From: a virus
DNA length: 64,000 nucleotides
IMG/VR virus record: IMGVR_UViG_3300046170_000173
Strand: one strand, 5' to 3'
Below the pieces are notes generated by a model. That model did no database searches, was not told where the DNA came from, and worked only from the letters and a program-made list of their open reading frames with translations. The translations under genes were made by a program, and so were the position numbers. The stretch's first letter is position 1, and each line of letters begins with the position of its first letter. Of the stretch, positions 1-24,511 are shown in pieces.

Positions 1-3000
1 TACGATCTTATTTCGTCTCAGGTAGTAGATGGGTATGAGATTGAAAATATACTTCTAACAGTTAATAATCAGTCTTCCGATATCACCTTCATGTATGAGA
101 TGGATAACGGTCAACGCGACAACTTCTATGACTTTGTTAGATTTAACTTAAAGCCAGGCAACACTATACCGGATGGTGCTGAAGTCTCTATTAGATTTAA
201 ACACTTCGAACATTCTACTACCGGAGGTTTCTTCTCTGCGGCATCATATGGAACTGAAGCAGAAGGCCAGTTGACTTACGATGAAATACCATCTTACACT
301 ATGTCTAACGGTAATACGCAATCTCTACGTGACGTTATAGATTTCCGTCCATCGAGAAATTCAAATGGGACATTCAAGGTGATGCCTTTACCACAGAATG
401 CATCTTCCCTTACTTTGAATGAAGTAGAGTACTATCTACCTCGTATTGATGTTTTGGTTGCTAACGTCGTTGATAGTTACGGTGATGTAGGATTTGGAGA
501 ACTACAAGTAATACAGGGTCAACCAGCAGTATCTCCTAGACCACCAGAGGTCCCAACAGGATCTTTACCTCTATATGTGTATCGACTTAACGCATATACT
601 TTTAATTCAACAGATCTTACAATGGAGAAGCAATCCCATAAGCGATATACCATGAAGGATATTGCTAAGATCGAGAACAGACTAGAAGGTCTATACGAAT
701 TGACGACTCTAAGTTTACTGGAGTCTAGTACCCAATCAATGGATGTATTAGATTCATCTGGTAACCCTAGAACCAAAGCAGGATTCATTGCAGACAACTT
801 CTCCTCGTTTAACTTCTCCGATGTGAATAGTGTAGACTATCGCGCGTCGGTTGAAACCACGAGTGGAGAACTACAACCATCATTCAGAGAGAATCTAGTT
901 AGACTGAAGCATGACGAATCGCAAGGGAAGTTCATCTCGTACTGGAGACTACGCAACTCTACCATACACTCACGCCTCGTTCATAACACAAGACGTGGCC
1001 ACGAGTACAATGAACATTAACCCGTTCTCGGTCATCACACAGGAAGGTCACATCACACTATCACCATCAAGTGATGAGTGGGTAGAGACACAGACTCTGC
1101 CACCAATTATGCAGACCGTTGTACGTCGCACACCAATTGAAACAGGTTTCAATGACCTGTGGAGATGGGAAAACGCGCCTGGGGGCATTGGTAACTTCAG
1201 ACAAGCGCAACGCAATCGATTCGAAAGAATGATAGACACCGTGTCGACACAGACACCTCTTGCTCGCTCAATTCAAGAGTTCGTTGGAGAACGTGTCGCA
1301 GGTGTTGAAGTCATTCCATTCATGCGATCACGTCTAGTATCATTCAAGGCAGAAGGTCTTCGTCCGAACGCGAAAGTGTGGGCATACTTCGGTAACCGAA
1401 ACGTCTCTGCGTGGTGTCGACCAACAAACACATTCGTTGAGTTCTCGACAACTGATTCCGAAGTGGGATCGTCCCAATCATCTGCGACAGGTATCGTAGG
1501 ATCAGGTCAGTTGACAACCAACGACAGAGGTGAAGTCGTCGGCGAATTCTTAATTCCAAACACAGACGCATTAAGATTCCGTACAGGAACTCAAGACTTC
1601 CAGATCTTAGACATCAACGTAAATACCTCAGATGCGAGACTGACAAGAACACAGGCTGCGGAGTCGTTGACAAACTCTACCGCTCCTTACACATCAACAG
1701 GAACTATCGAGTCTATCCAACGCACAATTAGAACCACGCGTATACCACAAAGAGTTCGTCGTCGTAAGGATCCACTCGCACAGTCGTTCTTCGTTGATCC
1801 GGCAGAGAACCCAAATGGAATTTTCCTAACCAAGGTACGCGTCTACGTACAGAGCAAAGACTCTACGATTCCGATGCAGGTTCAAATTCGACCAGTAGAA
1901 AATGGCATACCTACAACTACTATTGTACCAGGCTCGGTAAAGTTTGTCAAACCAGACGACATCACGCTCGCACCTAACACAGACATTGCAAGTATCCGAT
2001 CTAACGGAACGACCGTTGAGTTTGACGAACCAGTATATCTGACCGCAGGGGAAGAGTATGCGATTGTCCTACTTGCAGAGTCGGTTGAGTATAACGTATA
2101 TGTAGCACAGACCTACGAGACTATCATCGGTGGTAACGAAGGTAAGGTATCAAAACAACCTTCACTTGGTTCTCTGTTCATGTCACAGAGTGGTTCGACA
2201 TGGACGCCAGACCAGACCAAGGACTTGATGTTTGAACTGGAACGTGCAGAGTTTGATGCGTCCGGTGCTGTACATTTAATCAACAGTGATCTACCTTCTG
2301 TATCTTTGGAAGATTCTCCATTTAGTACAACAGAAAGCTCTAATCGAGTATTAGTCAGACACGAAGGTCACGGTTTCACTAGATTTGATCAGGTAACATT
2401 CTCTGGATCTACTTCAGTAGGTGGTCTCGACTTAAATGGAACATTTACTATTGACAACGTGACTTCTACAGGGTATACTATCGTAACTGGTCAGACAACT
2501 ACAGCTACATCAACTTCTGTTGGTGGCAGTAATTCAGTCATTGCGACTCAGAACGTTATGTTTGACGAATTCACTCCTCAAGTTTCCTCTATCATGCCTA
2601 ACGGAACATCTGTGTCTTCTACATCACAGAGATGTAAGGGTGCATCATATGCTGGGGATGGAGAGAATGGTCGTAATCCAAATTCAAGTGGACTCTCATA
2701 TAACAGAAATATCACTCAAGATGTTGTACTAAACGAAGTCAACACAGGATCACATCCTTCTGTTATCGCAACTACAGATAACAAACAGAGTCACAGTATT
2801 GAATTTATCTTGTCTCTTCAGACTTCAGACAGCAGGGTCTCTCCTTTGATAGATCTACAAAGAGTTTCTATGCTTGCTCTAGAGAATATTATCGGGGACC
2901 AATCGGAAGCGCAACACACCACAAGACCTACAACTATTGATGAAAGTTCAGTCGGTCTGAAAGTGGTCTTCGGTGCGAATAGACCGACAGGATCAACGTT

Positions 3001-3241
3001 TGAAGTCTATATCAAAACTTCTGTTGATGATGATTCTTTAGTCAATGCCTCTTGGATAGAAATGCCTATCGATAGTCAAGTACCTTCAGATGATAATATA
3101 TCAGTGTTCCGTGAGTATGAGTACACACAGGAAACCTCTAGTCCATTTAATGCGTTCCAAGTCAAGGTTGTTATGAAATCAAACAACTCATCCAAGTCAC
3201 CACGCATTCGTGACTTACGCGTAATCGCACTGGCAACGTGA
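1..3241 (+). CDS. Large virion structural protein (VrlC/DUF4815-like, T4-like marine phages); 5'-truncated and split by an apparent +1 frameshift near 925
   Basis: Frame is open from base 1 into ORF 91-1020 (DFRP, YYLPRID, RYTMKDIAKIENRL, GFIADNF motifs). ORF 911-3241 continues with NINPF, DPLAQSF, GSLFMSQ, and ends in PRIRDLRVIALA. Removing one G at ~925 (caaggg) joins them as ...HDESQGSSSRTGDYATLPY... Confidence 0.75.
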
Positions 3242-9717: not shown

Positions 9718-10200
9718 ATGTTAGACTACGTCGCATACGTGACAATTAGAACAGGGCAGATCAATAGATGCAGTGCCCCTCAATACAATACTCCATCAAA
9801 TGGTACAGTAGTTGATGATGGTATTAGTCTTGTTGTCTACGTAACAAAAGATAATATTCCGGATGGATGTGAAGGTCCGTCTCAGCTTAGAAATGAATAC
9901 ACCTATGACATGGTAGAATATAAGTTCGTCCATATCGGTCTTCCGCCAAACCAACATGCGGAATGGAATCCGGAGACTGGTGATTGGTCATGGGACTCAG
10001 AACTTCTGGAACAGGACATCCGAATAGAAAGAAACAGATTGTTGACTCTTTGTGATTGGACTCAGATTCCAGACGCCCCATTGTCACTTGATATGAAGAA
10101 TGCATGGGCAGGTTATCGACAAGAACTACGTGATATCACTTCAGACTTGGAAGGGGTGTCTAGTATATTAGACTTAAACTGGCCTACTACACCACAGTAA
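9718..10200 (+). CDS. Tail fibre assembly chaperone-like protein
   Basis: C-terminal ERNRLL..CDWTQIPDAPL....W..YRQELRDI..WP motif typical of phage tail assembly chaperones. Confidence 0.75.
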   Translation: MLDYVAYVTIRTGQINRCSAPQYNTPSNGTVVDDGISLVVYVTKDNIPDGCEGPSQLRNEYTYDMVEYKFVHIGLPPNQHAEWNPETGDWSWDSELLEQDIRIERNRLLTLCDWTQIPDAPLSLDMKNAWAGYRQELRDITSDLEGVSSILDLNWPTTPQ

Positions 10201-10222: not shown

Positions 10223-10259
10223 AAAAGTGCGGATGCCTCGGTTCCCGCACTTTTTTTTT
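10223..10259 (+). terminator. Rho-independent terminator
   Basis: AAAAGTGCGG...CCGCAC stem followed by a T-run. Confidence 0.75.
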
Positions 10260-10260
10260 A

Positions 10261-10268
10261 TATAAATA
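10261..10268 (+). promoter_or_regulatory. T4-type late promoter for the 1628-aa repeat protein
   Basis: TATAAATA directly after the terminator, ~50 nt upstream of the GTG start. Confidence 0.75.
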
Positions 10269-10319: not shown

Positions 10320-13300
10320 GTGTCAGCATCTAGTATACCACTAAAACTTCAAAATGCTAATGGTGACCTACAAGAATTCACTCCATCGGATGAGCTTTAT
10401 CTATCCTTTGCAGTGGGACAAGCATTAGTTGCGGCCGCTTCTAATGACGTTGGTAATATCAGTTTAACTGATGGCCAATCAATCGGTTCGTTTGTAGATT
10501 CTTACTACAATGAAATATCTGGCACCCACCCTGCTTCACAAATAACGGGTGCCTCAGTGACCACCACTCTGAAGCAAGTGAGTGGCCCAGCAGACGAATC
10601 CGGTGCAGACTTTGTCCGCCCAGTAGGTTATTACGACGTTGATCCAAACCCAGGCTTCTACGAAATGGTAGATGGGGATATGGACAACCTAGCAGGTCGT
10701 GTTCTGTCTAACTTAGTACAGAACGACTATATCGGTACTTTCAAACTGTCCGCTACTCAACCAAGTGCAGACTATACAAAGTTTATTGACTCTGTATTCT
10801 CTGACACTCATGGTAACGGTGGGGCAGGTACCGTAGTAACAAACTATCACATTTGGATGCGTACTTCTATGACGGCAGTTGCTCCAGTTCGTCCAGTAGC
10901 GACAAGCTACGACGGTTCTGGTTTCAACGGTCTACGTGAAATGACGGATGCGCAGATTCAGTACACACTGGGTCAACGTATTAAGTCAATGCGTGCTACG
11001 TCAGGAGCGATTGGTTCATACCAGTTGCGTTCCACAGCACAAGGCGCACCGACAGTCCCAGGCTCATGGTTGCCTGTAGGTACTGCACAGAACACACGTC
11101 GAACTCCAGTTGATGTTGCATACGCAAGAACTCGCGTATCTTCATACAACCGTGCACGTGTTTCTGCATACACTCGTACTCGCGTATCTTCATACACGCG
11201 TAATAGTGTAAATACATTTAGTCGTACCTTTGTAGGAGACTACACTGGTGCATATTCACGCGACTTCGTAGGTAACTACTCGCGTGACTTTGTTGGGAAC
11301 TACTCGCGTACTCGCCCATCATCGTACTCAGGTACATATGCAAGAACTCGCGTATCATCGTTTGCACGTACTCGTTTAACAGCGTTTACTGGATACTTTG
11401 CGGGAACTTACTCACGCGCACGTGTTTCAGTTTATACACGTAACCGTGTAACACCATTCACTGGTACATTCTCACGTAACCGTGTTTCAACATACACTCG
11501 TGGTCGTGTATCATCTTACGCCGGTACTTATTCTCGTAACCGCGTTTCTTCATACGTTGCAGACTATACACGCAACCGTGTTTCAACATATTCTGGAACA
11601 TATTCGGGCACTTACTCCCGTCTACGTGTTTCTGCTTATTCTGGAACATACTCGCGTAACCGTGTTTCATCTTATGCTGGAACATATACGCGCACACGTG
11701 TATCTACTTACGCAACTGACTTTACCCGCACCCGTGAAGAGAACTTCGCAGGGACTTACACTGGTTACTATACTGGCGTATTCTCTCGTGCTCGTGTATC
11801 AACATATACGCGTAACCGTGTAACAGGTTTCGCAGGTAACTTCATTGGTAACTACTCTCGCAACTTCCAAGGTAACTATTCGCGTAACTTCGTGGGTAAC
11901 TACTCTCGTGGATTTGCTGGAGATTACGTAGGTAACTACTCTCGCGTATCAACACGTACATCAACTCGCACACGTTACAGTGCTTACGCAAGAACACGCA
12001 TCACTAACTATGTTGGTGACTTTACTCGTGATCGCGTCACTAACTTTGCGGGTAACTTTGTGGGCAACTATGCTCGCACCTTCGTAGGAAACTACGGTGG
12101 TAACTTTATTGGAAACTACGCTCGTGACTTCGTTGGAAACTTCGTTGGAAACTACGCTCGCGCATATGTAGGTAACTACTCTCGCGGATTCGTAGGTAAC
12201 TACGGTCGTAACTTCCTTGGAAACTTTGTCGGAAACTACAGTCGTAACTTCCTTGGTGACTTCACCGGAAACTACGCTCGTGGTTTCGTCGGTGACTTCG
12301 TTGGAGATTTCGTAGGTAACTACGCACGTACTTCAACTCGTACATCGACTCGCACACGTTACTCTGCATATGCTCGTACTCGCGCAACGAACTACACTCG
12401 CAACCGTGGTTCTGCTTACGCTCGTACATCTACTCGTACTCGTTACAGTGCATACGCAAGAACTCGTGCAACAAACTATACAAGAACTCGTGGTTCAGCT
12501 TACGCACGTACTCGTATCACTAACTACGTTGGTGACTTCGCGCGTACATCTACTCGTAGCAGACCATCTACGTTCTCTTATGCACGTACTCTATACTACG
12601 CAGGTGACTTCGTAGGTAACTATGGTCGTACTCGTGTAACAAACTATACTCGTGCTTCAGCGGTAGGCGTGACCTATACAGGTAACTACACACGTAACCT
12701 ATACTACGTTGGTAACTATGCTCGTGGATATGCAGGCAACTTCGTGGGTAACTACACACGTAACCGTGCATTTTCATACGTAGGTGACTATGCTCGTAAC
12801 CGTGCATTCTCATACGCAGGTAACTACACACGTACTCGCGCAACAAACTACACTCGTAATAGAGTTGTTGCTGGTAACTCTACTCGTGTAAGCACAAACG
12901 GTGCTGGTTTTGTTGGTAACTTTGCAGGTAACTATGCAGGCAACTTTGCTGGTAACTTTACACGATCTACATCATCAACACGTACATCAACACGTGTTTC
13001 TACTGGTGCTGGTGGTCAGGTAACCAACGCATATTCCGGAAATAACTGGTCGTTAACTACAGGTTGGCGTTCGGATAGTGAAGGTGGAACCAATTTTGTT
13101 ACCGTTTATATTAATGGAACTTTAGTTGGAGGCATGACAGGAAGCGGAACATCTCTGACTGCTGGCGGTGTAACATATTATCGTGCTGCTTGGCGAAACA
13201 CGAATGGATTCGTATCACATTATGGTGTTACTTACCAATCGGGTGGTGCCTCTTATACTGGTAACTTTACTGGTAACTTTACAGGAACTGCTACTTACAC

Positions 13301-15206
13301 TCGTACTTCTACAAGAACGTCAACACGTACTTCGACTCGTACCCGTAGTAGCACTTTCTACTACACAGGTGATTTTGCGAACTCAACAACTTATGTTGGA
13401 GATTTCGTAGGTAACTTCGGTGGCACGTATACTCGTACTCGTACCGGAAACTACACTGGTAACTACGCACGTACTCGCACTGGTAACTACACTGGTAACT
13501 ACTCACGTACTTCGACACGCACACGTTATAGTGCTTACGCAAGAACTCGTGTTGCGACAGGTACTTACACACGTGACCGCGCTGCGACACTATACTACAC
13601 AGGTGACTTTGTAGGTAACTTCGCTGGTGCATACTCACGCACATCTACCCGCACATCAACCAATACTGGTTACTACTCACGCACACTGACTTACGCAGGT
13701 AACTACGTAGGTAACTATGCGACAACGTTCACTGGCGACTTCGTCGGTAACTATGCGCGTAACTTTGCGGGTGATTATGTTGGTAACTTCGTAGGTAACT
13801 ACGCTCGTGGATTTGCTGGTAACTATGTCGGTAACTACGCTCGCACATTCGTGGGTGATTTCGTAGGTAACTTCGTAGGTAACTATGCACGTGCATACGC
13901 TGGTAACTTTGCTGGTGACTTCGTAGGTAACTACGCGCGTACTCGTGTAACTAACTACACCCGTACTCGTAACTCTGCGTACACACGTAATCGCACACAG
14001 AACTTTGCGAACTCTTACGCTCGCACACGTGAAACAAACTATACTGGTTACTACACACGTAACCGTGCATCCGCATACGCTCGTACTCGTTACAGTGCAT
14101 ACGCTCGCACACGTGTAACTAACTACGTCGGTGACTTCACACGCGATTCAACCCGCACATCTACTCGTAACCGTGGTTCTTCATACACACGTGATCGTGT
14201 AACTAACTTCGCTGGTAACTTCGTAGGAAACTACGCAACAACGTTTACCGGAAACTTCGTTGGTAACTACGCACGTGGATATGCAGGCGACTTCGCTGGT
14301 AACTACACTGGTGACTATGCTCGTACTTCAACGCGCACTCGTTACTCCGCATACGCTCGTACTCGTGTATCTGCATACGTCCGCAACCGTGGATCATCAT
14401 ACACCCGTGATCGTGTAACTAACTTTGCTGGTGACTTTGTAGGTAACTACTCTCGCACCTTCTCTGGTCAGTACACACGTCAGTTCGCTGGTGAGTATGT
14501 TGGTGATTACGTAGGAACGTTCGCAGGTAACTACGTTGGTAACTTCAGTCGTAACTTCGGTGGAAACTACGTCGGTAACTATGCACGTGGATTTGCTGGT
14601 AACTACGTAGGAGATTATACTCGTGGATTTGCTGGTGAGTACACTGGTGCTTATTCCGGAACATACTCTCGCGGTTTCGCAGGGAACTACGTAGGTAACT
14701 ACAACCGTGGATTCGTTGGTGAGTACACTGGTACTTACAACACAACGTTTACAGGTAACTACTCACGTGGATTCTCCGGACAGTACACACGCGACTTCGC
14801 TGGTGACTTTACTGGAAACTACGCAAGAACATTTGCTGGTGAGTATACTGGTGCATACGCACGTGACTTCGTAGGTAACTTTGTAGGTAACTACAACCGT
14901 GGATACGTTGGTGAGTACACTGGTACTTACTCACGTGACTTCGTAGGTAACTACTCTCGTGTCCGTGTATCTGCATACGCACGTGTTAGACCATCATCAT
15001 ACAGTGGCGCATACACGCGTGATCGTGTATCAACATACGTAGGTGACTTCACTGGTAACTACACTCGTGACTTCGGTGGTAACTACACTCGTAACTTTGC
15101 TGGTAACTACGCACGTAGCTTCGTCGGTAACTACATTGGTGCAACCATCTCTGACACGCAGACACACGTTACAGATGTTTACACACTATATGTAAGGGTT
15201 GCATAA
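10320..15206 (+). CDS. 1628-aa putative virion fibre with mirror-complementary tetrapeptide-repeat arms (predicted giant beta-hairpin)
   Basis: GTG start; late promoter; highly biased codons; aa 268-894 and 979-1605 are built of YxRx/RxSx/FxGN/STRT tetrads; globular N-terminal base and central tip domain. Confidence 0.85.
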   Translation: MSASSIPLKLQNANGDLQEFTPSDELYLSFAVGQALVAAASNDVGNISLTDGQSIGSFVDSYYNEISGTHPASQITGASVTTTLKQVSGPADESGADFVRPVGYYDVDPNPGFYEMVDGDMDNLAGRVLSNLVQNDYIGTFKLSATQPSADYTKFIDSVFSDTHGNGGAGTVVTNYHIWMRTSMTAVAPVRPVATSYDGSGFNGLREMTDAQIQYTLGQRIKSMRATSGAIGSYQLRSTAQGAPTVPGSWLPVGTAQNTRRTPVDVAYARTRVSSYNRARVSAYTRTRVSSYTRNSVNTFSRTFVGDYTGAYSRDFVGNYSRDFVGNYSRTRPSSYSGTYARTRVSSFARTRLTAFTGYFAGTYSRARVSVYTRNRVTPFTGTFSRNRVSTYTRGRVSSYAGTYSRNRVSSYVADYTRNRVSTYSGTYSGTYSRLRVSAYSGTYSRNRVSSYAGTYTRTRVSTYATDFTRTREENFAGTYTGYYTGVFSRARVSTYTRNRVTGFAGNFIGNYSRNFQGNYSRNFVGNYSRGFAGDYVGNYSRVSTRTSTRTRYSAYARTRITNYVGDFTRDRVTNFAGNFVGNYARTFVGNYGGNFIGNYARDFVGNFVGNYARAYVGNYSRGFVGNYGRNFLGNFVGNYSRNFLGDFTGNYARGFVGDFVGDFVGNYARTSTRTSTRTRYSAYARTRATNYTRNRGSAYARTSTRTRYSAYARTRATNYTRTRGSAYARTRITNYVGDFARTSTRSRPSTFSYARTLYYAGDFVGNYGRTRVTNYTRASAVGVTYTGNYTRNLYYVGNYARGYAGNFVGNYTRNRAFSYVGDYARNRAFSYAGNYTRTRATNYTRNRVVAGNSTRVSTNGAGFVGNFAGNYAGNFAGNFTRSTSSTRTSTRVSTGAGGQVTNAYSGNNWSLTTGWRSDSEGGTNFVTVYINGTLVGGMTGSGTSLTAGGVTYYRAAWRNTNGFVSHYGVTYQSGGASYTGNFTGNFTGTATYTRTSTRTSTRTSTRTRSSTFYYTGDFANSTTYVGDFVGNFGGTYTRTRTGNYTGNYARTRTGNYTGNYSRTSTRTRYSAYARTRVATGTYTRDRAATLYYTGDFVGNFAGAYSRTSTRTSTNTGYYSRTLTYAGNYVGNYATTFTGDFVGNYARNFAGDYVGNFVGNYARGFAGNYVGNYARTFVGDFVGNFVGNYARAYAGNFAGDFVGNYARTRVTNYTRTRNSAYTRNRTQNFANSYARTRETNYTGYYTRNRASAYARTRYSAYARTRVTNYVGDFTRDSTRTSTRNRGSSYTRDRVTNFAGNFVGNYATTFTGNFVGNYARGYAGDFAGNYTGDYARTSTRTRYSAYARTRVSAYVRNRGSSYTRDRVTNFAGDFVGNYSRTFSGQYTRQFAGEYVGDYVGTFAGNYVGNFSRNFGGNYVGNYARGFAGNYVGDYTRGFAGEYTGAYSGTYSRGFAGNYVGNYNRGFVGEYTGTYNTTFTGNYSRGFSGQYTRDFAGDFTGNYARTFAGEYTGAYARDFVGNFVGNYNRGYVGEYTGTYSRDFVGNYSRVRVSAYARVRPSSYSGAYTRDRVSTYVGDFTGNYTRDFGGNYTRNFAGNYARSFVGNYIGATISDTQTHVTDVYTLYVRVA
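11121..15134 (+). repeat. 12-bp-period degenerate coding repeat (two arms, 11121-13001 and 13254-15134)
   Basis: Recurrent ttcgtaggtaactac, tacgcacgtactcgt and similar units; interrupted by non-repetitive 13002-13253. Confidence 0.9.
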
Positions 15207-15313: not shown

Positions 15314-15775
15314 ATGAGTTATAGACGTTGGATGGACAACGCATTCTGGGAAACAGAAGAGAAGAAAGAACTAAACTGTATCCTAGAAATGGAAGATGAT
15401 ATGGGTCGTGTCACCCGTCAACAAATGTTGTTGGCAAGACATGATCGTGATGGAAATACCAACGAATTGTTTTCGGAAGTCGTAGACGCACTTGGTGAAG
15501 AGTTGATTGATAAGGAAACTACCGATCGAGTCGAACGCAAAGCTGCGGAGGCGGAAGAAGAGAAACAACGTGAATTGGAACATCAAAAGGCTAGGAAACT
15601 TGAAAAACTATTCAACTACAAACTAGAAGCGTTTGAGGTTGAGGAGATTAAGAACTCTAAAAACCGGAAGTTAAAGGCAAAATTGCGTCGTGCAAAATCT
15701 AAGATTGAAGTCGATATGTACTCAATTATGATTCTACAAGACCAACTAGAGGCCGAGACAGATGGAAAAGAGTAA
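15314..15775 (+). CDS. Hypothetical protein (charged, helical C-terminus)
   Basis: 153 aa ORF with GGAG RBS; overlaps the next gene. Confidence 0.7.
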   Translation: MSYRRWMDNAFWETEEKKELNCILEMEDDMGRVTRQQMLLARHDRDGNTNELFSEVVDALGEELIDKETTDRVERKAAEAEEEKQRELEHQKARKLEKLFNYKLEAFEVEEIKNSKNRKLKAKLRRAKSKIEVDMYSIMILQDQLEAETDGKE

Positions 15776-16499
15776 AGGTTTTATTATTGTTGCGTCTAAG
15801 AAACGCAACTTTTATTTGTACGCAATCAATCTTGCAGAGTCTCTCAGGGACTACTATGAACCGGAAGAGGAATGCAAGATTTGTTTGGTGACTGAGGAAC
15901 GATTCCTTGATGACCGTGGTAGAGATGTCGCAGACGATATTCTCTTATGTGACGATCACTACCGCGCTAAGTTATGGGGTATGGCGAAATCGCCGTATGA
16001 CCTAACGATGTATATTGATGCTGACATGGAAGTAGAGCATGAAGACATCGTCAAAGTATGGGACGAAATGAAAGATCACGATGTGGTCTTCACCGCTTTG
16101 ACAGATGACCGTGACTACATATATGCAGAACGTGACTTTGATACTCCGGAAGGCGTTTCTAAGTTCACACTATGCGGAGCAGTATGTTTATATGATATGT
16201 CTAAACCGATTGTACGTGAGTTCATGGATGATTGGTGGGACTTGACATTCAGACAAATGAATGACACTTGGTGGCCAGACGGGTACGTGGACAGTCTCAA
16301 ATCTTGGGATCAGTTCTCACTCTGGTGGTTGACTGAGAAAGAAGAAAAGTATAAGGATCTCAAGGTTGGTATCTTTGATGACGACTTGAGATGGAACTAC
16401 TACAACGCACTTAATTGGGCAATAACAAAACCAGAAACAGGGCCAGTGATTATACGTCACTTCTCTGCTGGTCTTAATAAGGATACACCAATCGTATGA
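15762..16499 (+). CDS. Putative GT-A fold glycosyltransferase
   Basis: KLWGMAKSPYDLTMYIDADM (DxD), ...WDQFSLW..., C-terminal IIRH; GT8/nucleotide-diphospho-sugar transferase-like layout. Confidence 0.6.
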   Translation: MEKSKGFIIVASKKRNFYLYAINLAESLRDYYEPEEECKICLVTEERFLDDRGRDVADDILLCDDHYRAKLWGMAKSPYDLTMYIDADMEVEHEDIVKVWDEMKDHDVVFTALTDDRDYIYAERDFDTPEGVSKFTLCGAVCLYDMSKPIVREFMDDWWDLTFRQMNDTWWPDGYVDSLKSWDQFSLWWLTEKEEKYKDLKVGIFDDDLRWNYYNALNWAITKPETGPVIIRHFSAGLNKDTPIV

Positions 16500-17203
16500 C
16501 ACAGTTAAACGACCAATATCTAAAGCACGTCGACGTTAAGAACCCTGAGTTGCTTGCGATTCTGGACAACTACGCTGGACTACCTAAGATTTCTGGATTT
16601 GCAGAGAACTGTCACTGCACGTCTAAGGAACGTATGCGTCAGCGTAACTGGTACGTTGGACCAAAGTACATGCAAGAGATTGTAGATGAGGGAACGCAAC
16701 ACGAAGGTTTCCCAGATGAGATGGTAGGTTATAACTTTAAACTATCAGATCGTGCACACCAAATGTTCGAATCAGATGCAGATCCAATCTTCAAGCGTGA
16801 CATGACGCACATGTTGTCGGATCTAAACGACAAGATGATGAACTTCCTGTCTGTCAAGCACAATGCGCTTGCAGCGGTATACCCACCAGGCGGTTTCATT
16901 GCATGGCACAACAACGCTAACGCCCCAGGCTTCAACCTAATCTTCTCTTATTCGGAGAGTGGTTCAGGTTGGTTCGAGTACATCCATCCGGAAACTAAAG
17001 AAGTTGTCCGTTGCCAAGACAAGCCAGGTCAGTGGACTTGCAAGGCGGCATACTTCGGACACTACGGTGAAGAAGAGAAACTAATGTATCACGCTGCATC
17101 TTCAGAAGATGATTGGCGTGTAACCGTTTCTTATGTCTTCGACTGGTCTGAGACTTCAGAAGAATTCCGTGAGATGGTACTAGAAGACATCGCTTCAGAA
17201 TAA
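16496..17203 (+). CDS. Putative double-stranded beta-helix (2OG-Fe(II)-like) oxygenase
   Basis: YPPGGFIAWHNN...MYHAA...R.TVSY pattern (HxN...H...R); paralog at 40153. Confidence 0.5.
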   Translation: MTQLNDQYLKHVDVKNPELLAILDNYAGLPKISGFAENCHCTSKERMRQRNWYVGPKYMQEIVDEGTQHEGFPDEMVGYNFKLSDRAHQMFESDADPIFKRDMTHMLSDLNDKMMNFLSVKHNALAAVYPPGGFIAWHNNANAPGFNLIFSYSESGSGWFEYIHPETKEVVRCQDKPGQWTCKAAYFGHYGEEEKLMYHAASSEDDWRVTVSYVFDWSETSEEFREMVLEDIASE

Positions 17204-17237: not shown

Positions 17238-17274
17238 GACACAGAACGTTTATACACTTAGGGTCTTGATGACT

Positions 17275-17625
17275 ATGGCAACTTACGAAGATTTCACAAT
17301 TGATCAAGGTGCGGACCTAGCTCTACAGATAGAGTTAGTGAATCCGGACGGATCTAAGAAAGATCTCACTGGTTACTCCGCTTCTGCAAAGATGAAAAAA
17401 ACTTACAGAAGTGAAGATTCTATAGATTTCACCGCCGTGATTCCTGATCCTTCACCCGAAGGGATCGTCACATTATCCCTTACACATTTACAAACCGATG
17501 CCCTATCCACACGCGGCAGATACGTCTATGATGTTGAAATTAGTTTCGTTGATGAAGACGGACATACTATCATAGAAAGAATACTAGAAGGTAAGATCAA
17601 AGTCAACCCTTCTGTCACAAGGTAA
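17275..17625 (+). CDS. Baseplate/structural protein (BppU-N-like)
   Basis: TIDQGADL...DLTGYSASAKMKK...GRYVYDVEI...RILEGKIKVNPSVTR; start chosen at ATG 17275. Confidence 0.6.
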   Translation: MATYEDFTIDQGADLALQIELVNPDGSKKDLTGYSASAKMKKTYRSEDSIDFTAVIPDPSPEGIVTLSLTHLQTDALSTRGRYVYDVEISFVDEDGHTIIERILEGKIKVNPSVTR

Positions 17626-19000: not shown

Positions 19001-22000
19001 ATGGCATTTAGGCAGATTAAATCCCCAGCACTAGCGGACAAGGCGGTAATCGATACCAAACTTGACGAAAGCGCGGTACAGGGACAATCAACCCTTACAG
19101 GTATGACCGATCCATCAACGTGTTTCACACTGTTGTATGATGTAGGTTCAGACTCTCTAAAGAAGATCGGTGCTGATGCATTCTTCGCATCATTCTCGAC
19201 CGACGATCTAACAGAAGGTTCAAATCTATACTACACCTCAGCTCGTGCAAACGCAGATGTCGCACAACAAATCGATGACGACGTTCTAGTCGAAAAGAAT
19301 CGTGCGATTGGTGAAGAAGGTCGTATCGAATCAGAATCTAAGACACGTGACAATAAGCTAGAAGGTCAAGATTCTGCATTAAGCAACCGTATTACAAACG
19401 AAGTAACTCGTGCAGGCAACGAAGAAACTCGCATCGAAGACGAATCTAAGCAACGCGATAGCGCACTTGGTATTCGTATCGACAACGTCCTAAACAACAC
19501 GGACGAAGTTGCTCTTAACTCTCTTGCAGAAATCGTTACTGCGTTCCAGAACGCAGACAGCGCACTTTCTGGTTCTATCATCCAGAACGCTGCTGACATC
19601 GTTACTGAGCGCGGCCGTGCAGTTGCTCGTGAAAATCAGATTGAGACAGAATACCGTCTTGCAGACAGCGCACTAAGCGATCGCATTATCGAACGCAAGA
19701 GCGCAACTGACAGTGACTTTATTCACTTCACTCTTGCTGACGCAGGCCTACAAGGTCAAATCAGCACCAACGATACTGACATCGCGACATTGTTCGCACA
19801 AGACTCTGCTGAAACTCAACGCGCAGGAGACGAAGAAAGTCGTATCGAAGATAAGATCGATGTTGAAGTCGCACGTTCAACAGCAGTTGACTCAGCACAC
19901 AGTGCTCAGATCACCGCTGCTAACCTTGCGCGTGTTACTGACGATAACGTTGTTCGTTCAGAATTTGCTGCTGCTGACCAAGTAATCAAAGGTCAAGTTG
20001 AAGCACGTGACGACGCATTAATTGGCGATCTAACTGTTGATGGTACTTCAGGTAACACTGTAACTGACCGTATCGCAACTGCGAAACAAGAAGCAATCAA
20101 TGCAAGCAACGATGTTGTGGCATTCGAAAATGACGCACGTATTGCTGCTGATAGTGATCTACAAGAACAGATTACGGCAGAAGTTACTCGTGCAACTGCT
20201 ACAGAAGACGCACTAAGCGATCGTATCGACTCAGACTACACTGCTAACTGGGCAGACCATGCTGCAATCCGTTCTGAGTTTGCTGCTGGTGATTCGCACC
20301 TACAAGATCAAATTAACTTCATCACATCCAACACAGACTCTGCGGCACTAGATTCTCTAACAGAGATCGTAGCAGAAGTTGCTCGTGTAGATGGAACGGT
20401 TAATGCATTGATCCAGACTAACGTCGGTGACATCGTAGCAGAACGTGACGCACGTATCGCTGCTGACAGTGCACTAGGTATTCGCATTGACATCGAAACG
20501 TCCACACGTCGTGCAGGTGACTCTGCGGCGAATAAGCGTATCGACGATGCAATCCTAGATTACGTCGCTCGCGATTCAGATGTTCTATCATCTGCAAAAG
20601 CATACACAGATCAAGAAGCAGACACGCACCAAGCTGCGAGTGAAGAGTACACACGTCAGTATGTAACTCCACGCATCGGTGACGCAACTGTTGACGGAAC
20701 TGCTGGTAACTCAATCACAAATCGTATCACTACTGCTAAGTCAGAAGCGATAACATTTGCTCTAGGCCTAGATTCAGACGAACGCGCTCGCGCAACAACT
20801 GCTGAAGGTCTACTAAGTGGTCGCGTTGGTCACGTAGAAGGTCTACTAGACTCAGAGACGTTTGTAACTGTTGCTCAAACAGTTGTCCCAGCGATCAACG
20901 AACTACACGGTGATGCAGTATCATACGATCTACAATCTAAGGATCGCGACAGCGCTCTTGGTTCTCGTATTGACCTACTAGAGAACGGCACTTCAATCGA
21001 CGTTGATGCACTAAACACTCGCATCGGTATCGAAGAAGGCGTTCGTGACCGTGCAGACTCAGATCTACTTGCACGACTAGTCGTAGAAGAGAACCGCTCT
21101 AAGTTAGAAGATCAACAGCACGATTCTGACATCAGCGCACTAGGTCTTACTACTTCAGGTATCCGTGGTGATCTAACGATCGAAACTACAAATCGTATCA
21201 ACGAAGATACCACTCTACGTAACCGTATTGCTGCTGACAGTGATCGCCTAACACTTCTTGATTCAGAAGCTCATGTCCGTATGGATGTAATCTTCGATAC
21301 AAGCGAGTCGAAGGATTCAGATCTACTAGCACGTCTAATCGTAGAAGAAGATCGCTCGAAGGCGAAGGATTCTTCACACGATTCTGACATTTCAGTACTA
21401 TACTCCCAAGTTGGTACAGATGTCCAAGATCTACAAGATCAGATCGACGTAGAAGAAGCTGCTCGTATCGCAGGTGATTCTGCCCTACAGGCACAGATCA
21501 CTTCTAACGACGGTGACATCACTGCACTGCAAGTGAAGGACTCTGACCTACAGGCGCAGATCTCTTCAAACGACGCAGACATCTTCAACCTACAAGCGAA
21601 GGATTCTAACCAGCACGCTACTGCAATGCAGGCGATCGCTGATGAAGAGACTCGTGCAACAGGTATTGAAAATGGTCTACGTTCGGATGTCGACAGTGCT
21701 CACGCACGTATCGATCACATCCTAGACGGTTCTTCAACTGACCTAGATCAGATGCTAGAAATCGTCGAGGCGTTCCGTGACGCAGACTCAGACCTAGATG
21801 GTGTTATCACTAACAACACTGGTCGCATTACTACGCTAGAAGATCGCGCAGACGAAACTGACTCCGAGCAAGGTGTTCAGGATGGTCGACTAACTTCACT
21901 AGAAACACGCATGACTGCGAACGAAGCAGTAGACTCCGGTCAGAGTGTAACTATCGGAGATCACGAGAGTCGCATCACTGCGAACGAAACTCGTATCGGT

Positions 22001-24511
22001 GATAAGGCACTTGTGCTGAAGACTACTTCACAGTCACTATCTGGAGCAATCAACGATCTATATGACGACATTTCAGCAGAAGGTACTTCTCTTGTTGGTC
22101 TAACCGATCGTGTTGAAGACCTAGAAGATCGCGCAGACGAAACTGACACCGAACAAGGTGTTCAGGACGCACGACTAGACTCTGCGGAAGGTCGACTAAC
22201 TGTAAACGAAGGTGATATCGATGGCCTAGAAACATTCATGGGCACAGGTTTACTTGATACATCAGCTCAGGCAGTACGTCCAGCAATCAACGAGTTACAC
22301 ACTCAGGTAGACAACAACACTTCACGCGTTGGTGTCGTAGAGACTCGTGCAAACGAAACTGATATTGAACAGACTGCACAGGATCTGCGTTTAGATTCGC
22401 TAGAATCAGATCGCGCATTCAACATTATCAAAGATACACAACAAGACACACGTCTTGATGGTCTTGAAAACCGTGTCGATATGGACACAGTCTTCCAGAC
22501 AAGTGCAAACAAAGTTGTTCCAGCAATCAACGAACTGAAAGGTCGTTTGGATGTTTCGGACCAGTTCGCACAAGCTGAGAAGGTACGTCAAGATCAAGAT
22601 TCTGATCGTCTAACGACAGAAATTTCTACTCGTGCGCAAGAAGATTCTGCATTAAATGCATCAATCAACGCGCGTATCGATTCGTCAGAAAACAGAATCG
22701 CTGGTGACATCGCAGTATCTCTTGCAGAAGCGAAGGCATACACTCGTGACTACGCGGACGATGCTGAATCAGATGCACGTGCATACGCACTTGCTCTAGT
22801 TTCGCAGGAGAACGAAGCACGTATTCTAAACCAGAACTCTCAGCGTCAGTTAATCGATGGTAATCACGATATTGGCACTCAGAGAGATAACGCACAAGAC
22901 CTACTAATCTCAGGTCTACAGACAGAACTTGACGCAACTCAAGTTGGTGCTGGTCTAGGTGCAGATGGCGAATACCTAACTCCAGACTCTGGTGCAACCA
23001 CATATCTTGGTGCAACTACTTCACTAATGCAAGCGATCGTTACTCTTGATACTAACCTATCAACAGTAGCTGGTGTAAACAACAACGGTCGTAACAGTCT
23101 GCAACAGCAGATCACTAACGAAATCGCTGCTCGTGAGAACGGTGACTCAGATCTACTAGCACGACTAATTGCTGAAGAAGATTACACTAAGGCACAAGAC
23201 TCTGCTATCAACGGTCGTATCGATAACACTAACTCTGCTCTAGCGCAAGAAGTTATTGATCGTGTCGCAGGCGATTCTGCCCTACAAGCACAAATTGACT
23301 TTATCGTTTCTAACACAGACTCTGCTGCATTCGATTCTCTAACAGAGATCGTTGCTGAGTTCCAACGTGTAGACGGTGGTCTAACTGATCTAATCTCAGA
23401 CAACGCTTCTGAGATCGTTCGTGTAGAAGCTGAATCTAAGTCACGCGATTCTGACGAAGAAGCTGCTCGCATCGGCGGTGACGCGAATCTACAAACTCAA
23501 GTAGATGGACGTGTCGAGAAGGCAGGTGATACAATGTCTGGTGATCTAGACATGACAGGTAACATTGTTACAGGTCTTGCTCTACCAGTCGCACCGTCAG
23601 ACGCAACAAGCAAAGCATACACAGACGCACGTCTACTTGAACAGCACATTTCGCAGTTCACAACAGACAGTCTAACTGAAGGTACACGTCTATACTTCAC
23701 AGAGGCACGTGCTCGCGCGGCAGTCTCAGTGTTTGATGTAGATGGTGAAGGCGATGTTTCTTACGACGCTAACACTGGTGTAATTTCAATCGCAACAGGT
23801 AAATCATTCCTAGAACTAGAAGATGTTGTAGAAACATCATTCTCTGGACATGAAGGATTTGTCTCACGCGTTAAGACTGACGGCACAGGTATCGAATTTG
23901 TTCCGCCAACACAATTAGCATTCAACGACGCTAAGCGACAGACAATCAACGGTGATGGAATGGCGAGTACTTACTCTCTAGATTTCTACACTGCACAGAT
24001 TAACGCGCTAGTATTTGTCGGTGGTGTTATTCAGGATCCAGGCGTTCACTACACAATCAACTCAGGAACGCAAGAAATTACGTTCACGTCTGCGGTACCA
24101 CTAGGTACACAGGCAGTAGTAATCGCACAGTCAACTAACTCAGTTGGTGTCCTAGATCCTAAGTCTGTTGGTATTGAAACTCTTGCAGATAACCTAAAAG
24201 CATTCGAACATGGTTTAGACGTAGTTGCTGGTTCTTCACCAACAGTCGTCTCATCATTTGATCCAACAGTATACCGTTCTGCGAAGTACGTAGTTACTGT
24301 AGAGCAAGATGGTGAGTTTGAAACCCGAGAGTGTATGGTTGTCCATGATGGAACAAGTGCTTACATTACCGAGTACGGTATTGTTTACACAGGTTCGTCT
24401 CTACTAGGTGACACAGATATACGCTTCATCAACAGCAATGTTGAATTGATGTATACTGCTGAGTCTGGTAACGCAGTTGTTTCAGTTGCGGTAACTTACG
24501 TTAACGTATAA
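19001..24511 (+). CDS. 1836-aa segmented coiled-coil fibre protein
   Basis: Long Ala/Asp/Arg heptad stretches; repeated ALDSLTEIV and VVPAINEL; TDDLTEGSNLYYT..RA motifs; C-terminal YRSAKYVV...EYG domain; strong RBS. Confidence 0.75.
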   Translation: MAFRQIKSPALADKAVIDTKLDESAVQGQSTLTGMTDPSTCFTLLYDVGSDSLKKIGADAFFASFSTDDLTEGSNLYYTSARANADVAQQIDDDVLVEKNRAIGEEGRIESESKTRDNKLEGQDSALSNRITNEVTRAGNEETRIEDESKQRDSALGIRIDNVLNNTDEVALNSLAEIVTAFQNADSALSGSIIQNAADIVTERGRAVARENQIETEYRLADSALSDRIIERKSATDSDFIHFTLADAGLQGQISTNDTDIATLFAQDSAETQRAGDEESRIEDKIDVEVARSTAVDSAHSAQITAANLARVTDDNVVRSEFAAADQVIKGQVEARDDALIGDLTVDGTSGNTVTDRIATAKQEAINASNDVVAFENDARIAADSDLQEQITAEVTRATATEDALSDRIDSDYTANWADHAAIRSEFAAGDSHLQDQINFITSNTDSAALDSLTEIVAEVARVDGTVNALIQTNVGDIVAERDARIAADSALGIRIDIETSTRRAGDSAANKRIDDAILDYVARDSDVLSSAKAYTDQEADTHQAASEEYTRQYVTPRIGDATVDGTAGNSITNRITTAKSEAITFALGLDSDERARATTAEGLLSGRVGHVEGLLDSETFVTVAQTVVPAINELHGDAVSYDLQSKDRDSALGSRIDLLENGTSIDVDALNTRIGIEEGVRDRADSDLLARLVVEENRSKLEDQQHDSDISALGLTTSGIRGDLTIETTNRINEDTTLRNRIAADSDRLTLLDSEAHVRMDVIFDTSESKDSDLLARLIVEEDRSKAKDSSHDSDISVLYSQVGTDVQDLQDQIDVEEAARIAGDSALQAQITSNDGDITALQVKDSDLQAQISSNDADIFNLQAKDSNQHATAMQAIADEETRATGIENGLRSDVDSAHARIDHILDGSSTDLDQMLEIVEAFRDADSDLDGVITNNTGRITTLEDRADETDSEQGVQDGRLTSLETRMTANEAVDSGQSVTIGDHESRITANETRIGDKALVLKTTSQSLSGAINDLYDDISAEGTSLVGLTDRVEDLEDRADETDTEQGVQDARLDSAEGRLTVNEGDIDGLETFMGTGLLDTSAQAVRPAINELHTQVDNNTSRVGVVETRANETDIEQTAQDLRLDSLESDRAFNIIKDTQQDTRLDGLENRVDMDTVFQTSANKVVPAINELKGRLDVSDQFAQAEKVRQDQDSDRLTTEISTRAQEDSALNASINARIDSSENRIAGDIAVSLAEAKAYTRDYADDAESDARAYALALVSQENEARILNQNSQRQLIDGNHDIGTQRDNAQDLLISGLQTELDATQVGAGLGADGEYLTPDSGATTYLGATTSLMQAIVTLDTNLSTVAGVNNNGRNSLQQQITNEIAARENGDSDLLARLIAEEDYTKAQDSAINGRIDNTNSALAQEVIDRVAGDSALQAQIDFIVSNTDSAAFDSLTEIVAEFQRVDGGLTDLISDNASEIVRVEAESKSRDSDEEAARIGGDANLQTQVDGRVEKAGDTMSGDLDMTGNIVTGLALPVAPSDATSKAYTDARLLEQHISQFTTDSLTEGTRLYFTEARARAAVSVFDVDGEGDVSYDANTGVISIATGKSFLELEDVVETSFSGHEGFVSRVKTDGTGIEFVPPTQLAFNDAKRQTINGDGMASTYSLDFYTAQINALVFVGGVIQDPGVHYTINSGTQEITFTSAVPLGTQAVVIAQSTNSVGVLDPKSVGIETLADNLKAFEHGLDVVAGSSPTVVSSFDPTVYRSAKYVVTVEQDGEFETRECMVVHDGTSAYITEYGIVYTGSSLLGDTDIRFINSNVELMYTAESGNAVVSVAVTYVNV

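Follow-up and report, generated by a model that had tools for sequence, protein, structure and literature searches.

Protein P0001, the 1628-residue product of an open reading frame in a 64,000-nucleotide stretch of viral DNA (IMG/VR record IMGVR_UViG_3300046170_000173; the whole stretch is referred to here as the window), is probably a fold-back fibre, in which a base domain is followed by an arm running out, a tip, an arm running back and a strand that closes the base. Sequence statistics and covariation showed that the two arms are paired, at the level of sequence, and that the chain has a fold-back topology. The original prediction had proposed this topology from the letters of the DNA, and it is now supported by a scan of pairing registers, by matched indels and co-substitutions among relatives, by the insertion of the arms at a hairpin turn, and by avoidance of Arg:Arg contacts on the direct partner and on one diagonal only. 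The two sequence checks that the prediction had put forward, the register scan against shuffled controls and the search for matched indels in homologues, both came out in its favour. The parts of the gene are as follows.

10320-15206, + strand: open reading frame of P0001, the putative fold-back fibre protein, 1628 aa, GTG start
10320-11120, + strand: base domain, residues 1-267, from AlphaFold2, hhalign and homologues
11121-13001, + strand: arm 1, the outgoing strand, residues 268-894, from the mirror-register analyses
13002-13253, + strand: tip domain, residues 895-978, hypervariable and free of repeats
13254-15134, + strand: arm 2, the returning strand, residues 979-1605, mirror-complementary to arm 1 with i+j=1873
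15135-15203, + strand: last 23 residues, bearing the family-wide motif ETYTLYVR[VI]x

The arms had been predicted to be mirror-complementary in one gapless register, and both the register and the arm limits (627 residues each) proved exact. Scanning all antidiagonals i+j=k gave 83 R:G pairs, no R:R pair and 12 G:G pairs at k=1873, compared with 56 R:G and 14-24 R:R pairs at the best alternative in-phase register. When arm 2 was permuted in units of 4-64 residues (2000 shuffles each), R:G pairs numbered 44.6 +/- 5 with a maximum of 61-71, and R:R pairs averaged ~24 with a minimum of 5-15. Mutual information at k=1873 was 1.09, while shuffles gave 0.72 and never exceeded 0.94, so that the scan singled out k=1873 from the shuffled controls. 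Of the phase shifts in the tetrad pattern, which had been described as seven two-residue stutters in each arm near the tip, the position held (the tip-proximal third of the arms) and the count did not: we found eight in arm 1 and seven in arm 2, a difference that depends on the definition of a shift used here.

Such a mirror pattern could be structurally meaningless, either an accident of blocky repeat composition or the by-product of a nucleic-acid palindrome. The protein is indeed highly repetitive, and 72-79 aromatic-aromatic pairs occur at many in-phase values of k, but block-preserving shuffles never came near the observed values. At the DNA level, base complementarity in the mirror register was 22%, below the mean of 25%, and a search for an inverted repeat found none, bearing out the earlier statement that the arms are not reverse complements of each other. 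Nor are they copies, as had also been stated, since the best parallel identity was about one third.

The pair table at k=1873 agreed with the proposed pairing code, in which Arg faces a small or aromatic residue, Tyr faces Tyr or Phe, and Thr faces Gly. Besides R:G, the Arg rungs comprised R:F (44), R:S (29) and R:Y (13), and the absence of any Arg-Arg pair between two Arg-rich arms was as predicted; other rungs included Y:Y (50), Y:F (21), G:T (28) and G:G (10). Both arms follow a strict two-residue alternation that gives them two faces. Face 1 carries 171 of the 174 Arg, 234 of the 248 aromatic residues and nearly all of the Gly, and face 2 is made of Thr, Asn, Ala, Val, Ser and Asp. Each rung of face 1 is an aromatic pair or a single Arg facing Gly, Ser or an aromatic residue; 171 rungs hold one Arg, 143 hold none, and 0 hold two. 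Arg content per paired 32-residue window was 6-11, compared with 1-8 in a single arm.

Contacts on the neighbouring diagonals were also unevenly distributed. R:R pairs were absent at k and at k+2, but there were 29 at k-2; the k+2 diagonal held 115 Arg-aromatic pairs, and most Arg have an aromatic residue on one diagonal. This asymmetry is what a twisted antiparallel ribbon would give. Slipping the register by 4 or 8 residues would create 12-36 Arg:Arg clashes, and therefore the sequence itself sets the register, like the base pairs of an RNA stem. The arms are rich in Gly and Asn, both poor beta formers, and this counts against a beta-ribbon.

The mirror rule also held in relatives of the protein. 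In all nine close relatives (1602-1691 aa) the best register was gapless and fell exactly at k=L+245, with 78-87 R:G and 0-1 R:R pairs. Registers anchored on the base domain had an offset of 245 in the window protein, 243 in P0155, 249 in P0003 and 244 in the outermost block of the homologue from phage C48C1. P0155 had 54 R:G and 0 R:R pairs at k=L+243, and P0003 has its Arg-type and Gly-type arms exchanged. The C48C1 homologue (3347 aa) had 114 R:G pairs and 1 R:R pair; its arm 1 runs unbroken from 267 to 1286, and its arm 2 is broken only by five globular domains. In total, at least 12 homologues differing in length and block order obeyed the rule. Of 20 family members that contain Arg, 8-9 had the base-closing register as their best, and in Arg-poor members the complementarity signal was weak by the measures used. 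A test of volume complementarity that makes no use of the pairing code placed the base-closing register first in ~15 of 52 members, a weak and suggestive result. A gapless whole-length scan of distant homologues with a pair matrix trained on the window was dominated by globular inserts and gaps, and it was dropped as uninformative. Alignment of each protein with its own reverse, against a shuffled-reverse control, gave ratios of ~2 and was discarded because the self-reverse path is symmetric.

Indels in the arms of close relatives had mirror partners that matched them in length and were opposite in type, leaving arm lengths balanced. A 28-residue Arg-type segment at ~674 is matched by a 28-residue Gly-type segment at ~1166 (mirror position 680-707), a 30-residue insertion at 832 by one of 30 residues and opposite type at 1036 (mirror position 837), and 2-residue deletions at 857 and 874 by deletions at 1013 and 1002. 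Substitutions behaved in the same way: rungs changed on both sides within one relative numbered 29 at k=1873, where the maximum fell exactly, compared with 13.4 +/- 3.8 (at most 24) in other registers. Codon differences in the arms of these relatives were synonymous-only over amino-acid-changing by about 2:1. These compensatory indels and substitutions, and the recurrence of one rule in homologues of varied lengths and block orders, together with the shuffles and the DNA comparison, refute the reading of the pattern as structurally meaningless. Under the fold-back reading, stalk length would change by paired insertions, one per arm, that are complementary in type.

The base domain contains three beta-beta-alpha-beta-beta units related to one another, of which the third lacks its last strand, and AlphaFold2 with a 44-sequence alignment predicted a compact monomer (pLDDT 92.7, pTM 0.87). 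With the arms excised, unit 3 aligned end-to-end with unit 2 in hhalign (probability 94.7%, E 5.6e-8), and therefore the arms are inserted at the turn of a beta-hairpin. Excision of the arms also aligned the C-terminal segment to the final strand of unit 2; adding this segment to unit 3 lengthened the hhalign alignment with no gain in score (44.7 vs 44.6). The C-terminal motif ends 65 complete family members and is nearly invariant in the family alignment, and we infer that the last ~20-23 residues are the closing strand of unit 3.

Homologues of the base domain numbered 319 representatives at E<=1e-3 and 110 at E<=1e-30, and among 50,697 phage records the domain was found in one, C48C1. In the 309-aa family members the arms are only ~20 residues each. 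By sequence comparison, P0001 belongs to an unnamed family defined by a three-repeat base domain, repeat arms and a C-terminal ETYTLYVR motif. A Foldseek search of the base-domain model against the PDB returned nothing at E<=0.001. The best matches in VIA-align were MABP / MACPF-P2 beta-prisms (3tow, 2qp2 and 8b6v), weak similarities to be taken as a hint only (Z 4.1-4.3, ~105 aligned residues, rmsd 3.5-3.9, 6-13% identity; for 3tow, Z 4.3 and rmsd 3.5 over 104 residues). These prisms have a pseudo-threefold architecture, comparable to the three internal repeats of the base domain.

The 84-residue tip sits exactly at the symmetry centre, flanked by Gly-rich linkers. It is only 22-44% identical among relatives whose arms are 85-97% identical, and amino-acid-changing codon differences in it far exceed synonymous ones. 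The tip is homologous to that of the C48C1 protein (38% identity, E 1e-5) and is a candidate receptor-binding module. An AlphaFold2 model of the tip with 100 residues of each arm (residues 795-1078), built with no alignment, was uninformative (pLDDT 37.7, pTM 0.26).

By itself, complementarity at constant i+j fits intrachain and interchain pairing alike, and the arms could instead form an antiparallel domain-swapped dimer, with arm 1 of one chain beside arm 2 of the other in a rod of double length that holds both tips in its middle. The position of a hypervariable, linker-flanked tip at the symmetry centre argues against this arrangement, as a binding module buried in mid-rod would make little functional sense, and the short arms of the 309-aa members can only be simple base-domain hairpins. 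We consider the swapped dimer quite improbable.

In the fold-back fibre, the chain would exit the compact base domain, with its three repeats, where the third beta-hairpin turns, go out for 627 residues along arm 1, form the 84-residue tip domain, and come back antiparallel for 627 residues along arm 2 with residue i beside residue 1873-i, after which the last ~20 residues would provide the missing strand of the base. Beyond this path we infer the beta-ribbon geometry, the oligomeric state and the virion location of the protein. A fully extended ribbon would reach ~200 nm, and a coiled one would be shorter; the ribbon may be free, or several may be bundled as in the trimeric gp37 needle. The protein would act as a late-expressed virion fibre, holding an exchangeable binding domain well away from the particle.

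A much shorter stalk, ~20 nm, would result if each arm were a beta-solenoid, for example of 16-residue coils, and the two packed antiparallel side by side. The octads hold Gly-Asn or Gly-Asp, good turn formers, small and large residues alternate as in narrow solenoids, and ice-nucleation proteins unite tyrosine ladders, Arg-rich coils and antiparallel assembly (PMC10727499). A constant coil length, as in such solenoids, was looked for in the arms and no dominant long period was found: self-identity was 0.19-0.32 at multiples of 4 and about equal (0.24-0.32) at lags of 8, 12, 16, 20, 24 and 28, lag 16 not standing out, and the arms mix units of 4, 8 and 12 residues in irregular order. Long Arg-type stretches are free of Gly, and complementarity extends to every Arg/aromatic-face position of every octad, whereas paired solenoids would touch through one sheet only. 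Side-by-side solenoids are thus a very unlikely form of the arms. At lag 3 self-identity was 0.04-0.06, and a Gly at every third residue, as in collagen-like or polyglycine-II structures, was not found.

Two packings of the paired arms then merit discussion. The arms may be a free-standing, single-chain, two-stranded beta ribbon of ~200 nm, coreless, with a register set by its code and an evolution like that of a nucleic acid stem, and this we hold as a tentative reading; under it, the same ribbon in the 3347-residue homologue would exceed 300 nm. A free ribbon of 200 nm exposes both faces to solvent, and we know of no such structure; therefore bundling or other packing may be needed. The same fold-back could be accommodated if three, or a few, hairpins bundled into a multi-stranded beta tube resembling the gp37 needle, with the core lined by the face of small residues (Thr, Val, Ala, Asn, Ser) and the Arg/aromatic face turned outward. 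Face 2 residues are small and partly hydrophobic, fit for a narrow core, a tail-fibre chaperone gene is adjacent, and phage fibres are typically trimers, the gp37 needle being a trimer of out-and-back chains (PMC6957217). On the other hand, the base domain is itself pseudo-threefold and predicted to be a compact monomer, and since one of its three hairpins is extended, a trimer is not called for. The His-x-His metal sites of gp37 are also lacking, with one His in 1338 residues. We regard a bundle as possible but somewhat doubtful.

The genomic setting of the gene is consistent with a late-expressed fibre, and the late promoter and fibre-block location noted in the original prediction both held. 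The following features surround the gene.

91-3241: DUF4815 gene
9718-10200, + strand: tail-fibre assembly chaperone gene (Phage_tail_APC, Pfam PF16778, E 1.1e-14)
10227-10259, + strand: terminator-like hairpin GTGCGG...CCGCAC followed by nine T, read from the sequence, ending the upstream unit
10261-10268, + strand: T4-type late promoter box TATAAATA, 52 nt upstream of the GTG start
28605-29486: T4 neck protein (gp14) gene
29486-30268: gp15 gene

The late promoter box comes after the terminator-like hairpin, and it occurs 12 times in the window where 2.1 copies are expected, with 11 of the 12 on the + strand. The chaperone gene also matched PHROG tail fibre assembly families (E 1e-12), and phage C48C1 has the same neighbour beside its homologue. 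The host-recognition cluster of T4-like marine myophages was defined in PMC7029224 as lying between the VrlC/DUF4815 gene and the gp14 neck gene. The P0001 gene has other fibre genes around it, with DUF4815/VrlC-type genes on one side and the gp14 gene on the other, and by this gene order would belong to the host-recognition cluster of an uncultured T4-like marine phage. The three genes downstream of it gave no hits in the PDB, and their best match overall, to GT2 at E 0.025, fell below threshold.

The closest analogue in topology is the T4 gp37 needle. Known phage fibres had been described in the original prediction as parallel trimeric beta-helices, coiled coils or collagen, but not all of them are parallel, since the needle also runs out and back (PMC6957217). 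The structure of the needle and collar, D10-D11 (Bartual et al. 2010), is summarised in PMC6957217, with the base D10 formed by residues 811-881 and 1010-1026 and the needle D11 by residues 882-1009. Gly of one strand packs on an aromatic residue of the partner strand, as in G921 with F970, which is a further point of resemblance, and gp37 is an obligate trimer with seven iron ions held on His motifs (PMC6957217). As in gp37, the chain of P0001 would go out to a receptor-binding tip and return, the base is built from segments flanking the stalk, and the gene is a late fibre gene of a T4-like phage accompanied by a chaperone. Unlike gp37, whose arms are ~64 residues, the arms are 627 residues here and ~1020 in C48C1; residues 268-1605 contain a single His in place of iron-binding His-x-His motifs; the tetrad/octad pairing code is absent from gp37; and the base here is a three-repeat single-chain domain. 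Pfam, PHROG and PDB phmmer searches found no sequence or profile similarity of P0001 to gp37 or a solved relative.

Other systems share single aspects of the design. Like RNA and DNA stem-loops, the protein has distant, antiparallel, complementary segments with a register set by rule and a tip at the centre in place of a loop, together with compensatory substitutions and paired indels; unlike those stems it is a protein, its pairs are matches of side-chain size, charge and aromaticity, and its rule is degenerate. Tryptophan zippers and model beta-hairpins are 12-20-residue peptides with cross-strand aromatic pairs and diagonal cation-pi contacts, and the arms would have comparable facing aromatic pairs and cations stacked on a diagonal aromatic, here over ~310 rungs. 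SasG/Aap G5-E repeats and the OspA central sheet form long thin beta rods that have no conventional core and can be monomeric, but they run N-to-C along the rod as three-stranded, discrete domains, with no fold-back or mirror complementarity.

Neither the full-length protein nor its base or tip could be assigned to a family by searches of Pfam, PHROG and PDB sequences, and a phmmer search of all PDB chains returned nothing meaningful, the top hit being to chlorophyll-binding proteins at E 0.25. The ESM Atlas contained no model and returned viral hypothetical clusters only. We found no description of such a fold-back fibre protein in the literature; 'Tentaclins', considered as a possible precedent, are unrelated C-type-lectin/Ig proteins and were rejected.

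If the ribbon is real, a protein can encode long-range self-pairing by a simple residue code and evolve by compensatory change, a mode so far tied to nucleic acid stems. A free ribbon, if true, would be a fibrous architecture of a class new among proteins, in effect a programmable 'protein duplex' made by nature. Long beta-ribbon materials of set length and register could be designed with the help of the pairing code, and the hundreds of sequences in the family are natural data from which the rules of cross-strand pairing can be learned. For the phages themselves, the design would explain how a large group of uncultured marine T4-like phages obtains tunable stalks, in a family ranging from 309 to more than 3300 residues. 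Stalks of this kind, holding out exchangeable binding domains, would be relevant to host recognition in the ocean.

The two arms lie exactly where the original prediction had placed them, with arm 1 spanning residues 268-894 and arm 2 residues 979-1605 of the 1628-residue protein, 627 residues each, around a non-repetitive centre of 84 residues. They are built of tetrads grouped as octads, chiefly YxRxRVSx or YxRxFVGN, together with STRT runs. When all antidiagonals i+j=k were scanned for facing residue pairs, k=1873 gave 83 Arg:Gly and 0 Arg:Arg pairs, compared to a best of ≤56 Arg:Gly with 14-24 Arg:Arg in other in-phase registers and at most 52 Arg:Gly with 13-20 Arg:Arg in parallel registers. 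Shuffling arm 2 in 4-, 8-, 16-, 32- or 64-residue units (2000 shuffles per unit size) yielded 44.6-50.2 Arg:Gly (sd 5-6, maximum 71) and 20-24 Arg:Arg (minimum 5), and the mutual information of facing residues fell from 1.09 to 0.72-0.75 (maximum 0.94). The proposed register thus outscored every other in-phase register and all shuffles, and the pairing code read by eye was reproduced in the pair table (R:G 83, R:F 44, R:S 29, R:Y 13, Y:Y 50, Y:F 21, G:T 28, G:G 10). A chance origin of the mirror pattern is excluded, as shuffles in units of up to 64 residues never reached 83 Arg:Gly or 0 Arg:Arg. A DNA palindrome is likewise excluded as its source, since no inverted repeat was found in the DNA and base complementarity at the matching register is 22%, below the mean of 25%, which agrees with the earlier view that the arms are not reverse complements and that the symmetry exists at the protein level.

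Splitting the arms at every second residue separated two faces almost perfectly, with 0 slips along the full 627-residue length of either arm. The first face holds 171 of the 174 Arg, 234 of the 248 aromatics and 129 Gly, and the second consists of Thr, Asn, Ala, Val, Ser and Asp. Of the first-face rungs, 171 have exactly one Arg, 143 lack Arg and 0 have two, and Arg content hardly changes between paired 32-residue windows (6-11 Arg, compared to 1-8 in a single arm). Arg:Arg pairs are also absent from the k+2 diagonal, where 115 Arg sit opposite an aromatic, compared to 29 Arg:Arg on the k-2 diagonal and 12-36 in other nearby registers. Only one diagonal is in close contact in a twisted antiparallel ribbon with hairpin geometry, so this one-sided avoidance is expected of such a ribbon. 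The second face follows rules of its own: Val sits across from Thr, Asn or Asp, and Val:Val and Asn:Asn pairs hardly ever occur.

Because the two-residue alternation is strict and the contacts are direct plus one diagonal, the sequence points to an antiparallel beta ribbon, in which 627 rungs at 3.3-3.4 Å per residue would extend ~200 nm, or less if coiled. A model in which each arm forms a solenoid and the two pack side by side is disfavored: arm self-identity is about equal at all lags divisible by four, without a preferred 16-residue period to give a fixed coil length, and complementarity holds at every octad. The net charge of the arms is +124 and other family members are acidic, therefore surface chemistry differs between lineages.

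Nine complete IMG/VR proteins with base domains 94-99% identical to that of the window protein (lengths of 1602, 1614, 1620, 1671, 1676 and 1691 aa) allowed the same register to be followed among close relatives. In 9/9, the best register was exactly k=L+245, where L is protein length, gapless and with 78-87 Arg:Gly and 0-1 Arg:Arg; runner-up registers had 16-18 Arg:Arg. Pairwise alignment to the window protein located the length differences and, as the original prediction anticipated of homologues, indels occurred as matched pairs in both arms. In two relatives, a 28-residue Arg-type segment is missing from arm 1 (~674-701), as is a 28-residue Gly-type segment from arm 2 (1166-1193, mirror 680-707). 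Insertions of 30 residues, Gly-type at 832 and Arg-type at 1036 (mirror 837), were found together in one relative. Another is shorter by 2 residues at 857 and at 874, with the partner deletions falling at 1013 (mirror 860) and 1002 (mirror 871). Since the two members of an indel pair are of different sequence type and separated by 0.4-1.5 kb of DNA, they represent separate events kept together by selection rather than copies. Substitutions behaved similarly: 29 rungs at k=1873 showed joint replacement of both facing residues within a relative, compared to 13.4 ± 3.8 (maximum 24) at 120 other registers, mostly on the small-residue face (e.g. V:G to T:D, T:N or T:Q). Synonymous-only differences outnumber amino-acid changes ~2:1 among arm codons, showing that the fiber reading frame is under purifying selection.

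The base (residues 1-267) was predicted by AlphaFold2 from a 44-sequence alignment to be compact (pLDDT 92.7, pTM 0.87) and to consist of three beta-beta-alpha-beta-beta units, the third without its final strands; structure searches returned weak beta-prism matches only (Z 4.3). With the family alignment cut into base units and the arms excised, an 81-column match (probability 94.7%, E 5.6e-8) was obtained between unit 2 (97-188) and unit 3 joined to the last 23 residues of the protein. In this match, the C-terminal YTLYVRV aligns with strand YHIWMRT of unit 2, and the arms take the position of a short Gly-rich turn of unit 2. Adding the C-terminus to unit 3 lengthened the alignment without raising its score, so closure of base unit 3 by the C-terminal segment is suggestive rather than proven. 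Minimal family members of 309 aa (loci L018 and L019, from 10001) have, besides the base domain and closing strand, arms of only ~20 residues; they fit a hairpin that was lengthened in other lineages, and may show its starting state.

At the tip (895-978), identity drops to 22-44% in relatives with arm identities of 85-97%, and most tip codons differ at the amino-acid level; the tip is homologous to the tip of the Phage C48C1 protein (38% identity) and has no paralogue within the window. We infer that this hypervariable segment at the far end of the stalk is a candidate receptor-binding domain, as expected of one. Pairing of the arms between chains in an antiparallel dimer is compatible with the sequence alone but fits poorly with a central hypervariable tip and with the 309-aa members.

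In topology, the closest analogue of the window protein is the needle of T4 gp37, in which D10 comprises residues 811-881 and 1010-1026 and D11 residues 882-1009 (PMC6957217). It has no sequence similarity to gp37, no His-metal sites, arms ten times longer and a different base, and is not a gp37-family member. No relative of the window protein was found in Pfam, PHROG or PDB, and a literature search found no paper describing such a protein. The ribbon may stand alone or bundle, as in the trimeric gp37 needle; the monomer-like pseudo-threefold base slightly favors a single chain, and general fiber biology favors a trimer.

The setting of the gene bears out two further predictions, a late promoter and a location in the tail block. 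Features at the start of the gene are:

10227-10259, 5' of the fiber gene: terminator-like hairpin and T-run
10261-10268, between the terminator-like hairpin and the fiber gene: TATAAATA box
10320-15206, + strand: fiber ORF, 1628 residues, GTG start

TATAAATA occurs 12 times in the window compared to 2.1 expected, 11/12 on the + strand and mostly just upstream of structural genes (e.g. 9682, 10261, 17230, 18542, 27781, 32265, 36357, 39663), and these copies are a T4-type set of late promoters. The window derives from a T4-like myophage encoding gp20 portal, gp23 capsid protein, gp18 sheath, gp17 terminase, UvsW and gp43 polymerase, as well as gp14 neck protein, gp15 and scaffold. A tail-fiber assembly chaperone gene lies directly upstream of the fiber gene, which is located between DUF4815 (VrlC-type) genes and the gp14 gene. 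This position is that of the hypervariable host-recognition cluster known from cyanomyophages and pelagimyophages (PMC7029224), and the metagenome contig encoding the family protein P0003 shows conserved synteny.

Directly 3' of the fiber gene, three small overlapping genes (15314-17203) share 79.5% DNA identity with C48C1, are far more conserved than the fiber and also follow the fiber genes in the sediment-metagenome contig L002; they match no family (top match Glycos_transf_2, E 0.025, below threshold). A 119-aa protein (17266-17625) matches PHROG 'L-shaped tail fiber protein assembly' (E 1.5e-16), with a weak match to the Pfam LtfC-like beta-sandwich, and may be a second fiber-assembly factor of the cluster. 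The cluster also holds two very large ORFs without a Pfam family, 19001-24511 (1836 aa) and 24588-27722 (1044 aa). ORFs of 81-113 aa inside the fiber gene (12568-12846 and 13309-13644 on the - strand, 11482-11823 and 12370-12615 on the + strand) are probably shadow frames of repetitive coding sequence.

Among 50,697 phage records, the sole relative was a 3347-residue protein of Phage C48C1 (OQ984149, L001:2222-12265; filed under Kyanoviridae). Using a pair matrix trained on the window protein, its arm 1 (267-1286) aligned to reversed arm 2 with 0 gaps in arm 1, arm 2 being interrupted only at insertions of five globular domains, and the aligned pairs included 114 Arg:Gly and 1 Arg:Arg. All five inserts are in the returning arm and 0 in the outgoing arm, and would lie like beads at rungs ~68, 139, 219, 307 and 585 counted from the base. 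Beside the first insert, a ~60-residue segment occurs as two tandem copies, possibly through a genuine duplication or as an artefact of assembly.

Contig L002 (10001-18355) encodes two tandem family members of 1290 and 1478 aa, the first arm being Gly-type in one and Arg-type in the other, therefore some phages have two different fold-back fibers. Within this pair, P0155 (1478 aa) has 54 Arg:Gly and 0 Arg:Arg at k=L+243, compared to 21.7 and 15.5 in other in-phase registers, and P0003 pairs gaplessly over ~190 residues with its Arg-type and Gly-type arms swapped relative to the window protein. The base-domain family comprises 319 representative clusters; all 65 complete members (422-2654 aa) carry a C-terminal ETYTLYVR[VI]x, and the base-closing register was best in 8-9 of 20 Arg-containing members, compared to ~2 by chance. 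In the metagenome protein P0002, the base is interrupted by inserted FG-GAP-like and LamG-like domains (PF14312, PF13385). Two others, P0005 and P0006 (~2500-2650 aa), have an extra N-terminal insert and acidic arms (Asp+Glu 17-18%, Arg 1%), and their pairing rule, if any, must differ from that of the window protein.

Exact-register mirror pairing, with paired indels and substitutions in relatives, supports the giant fold-back hairpin originally proposed. The window protein is most likely a fold-back fiber, for which we infer a virion location and function: the chain would run out and then return in exact register, the pairing rule would set the register of the arms, and stalk length would evolve through paired insertions.
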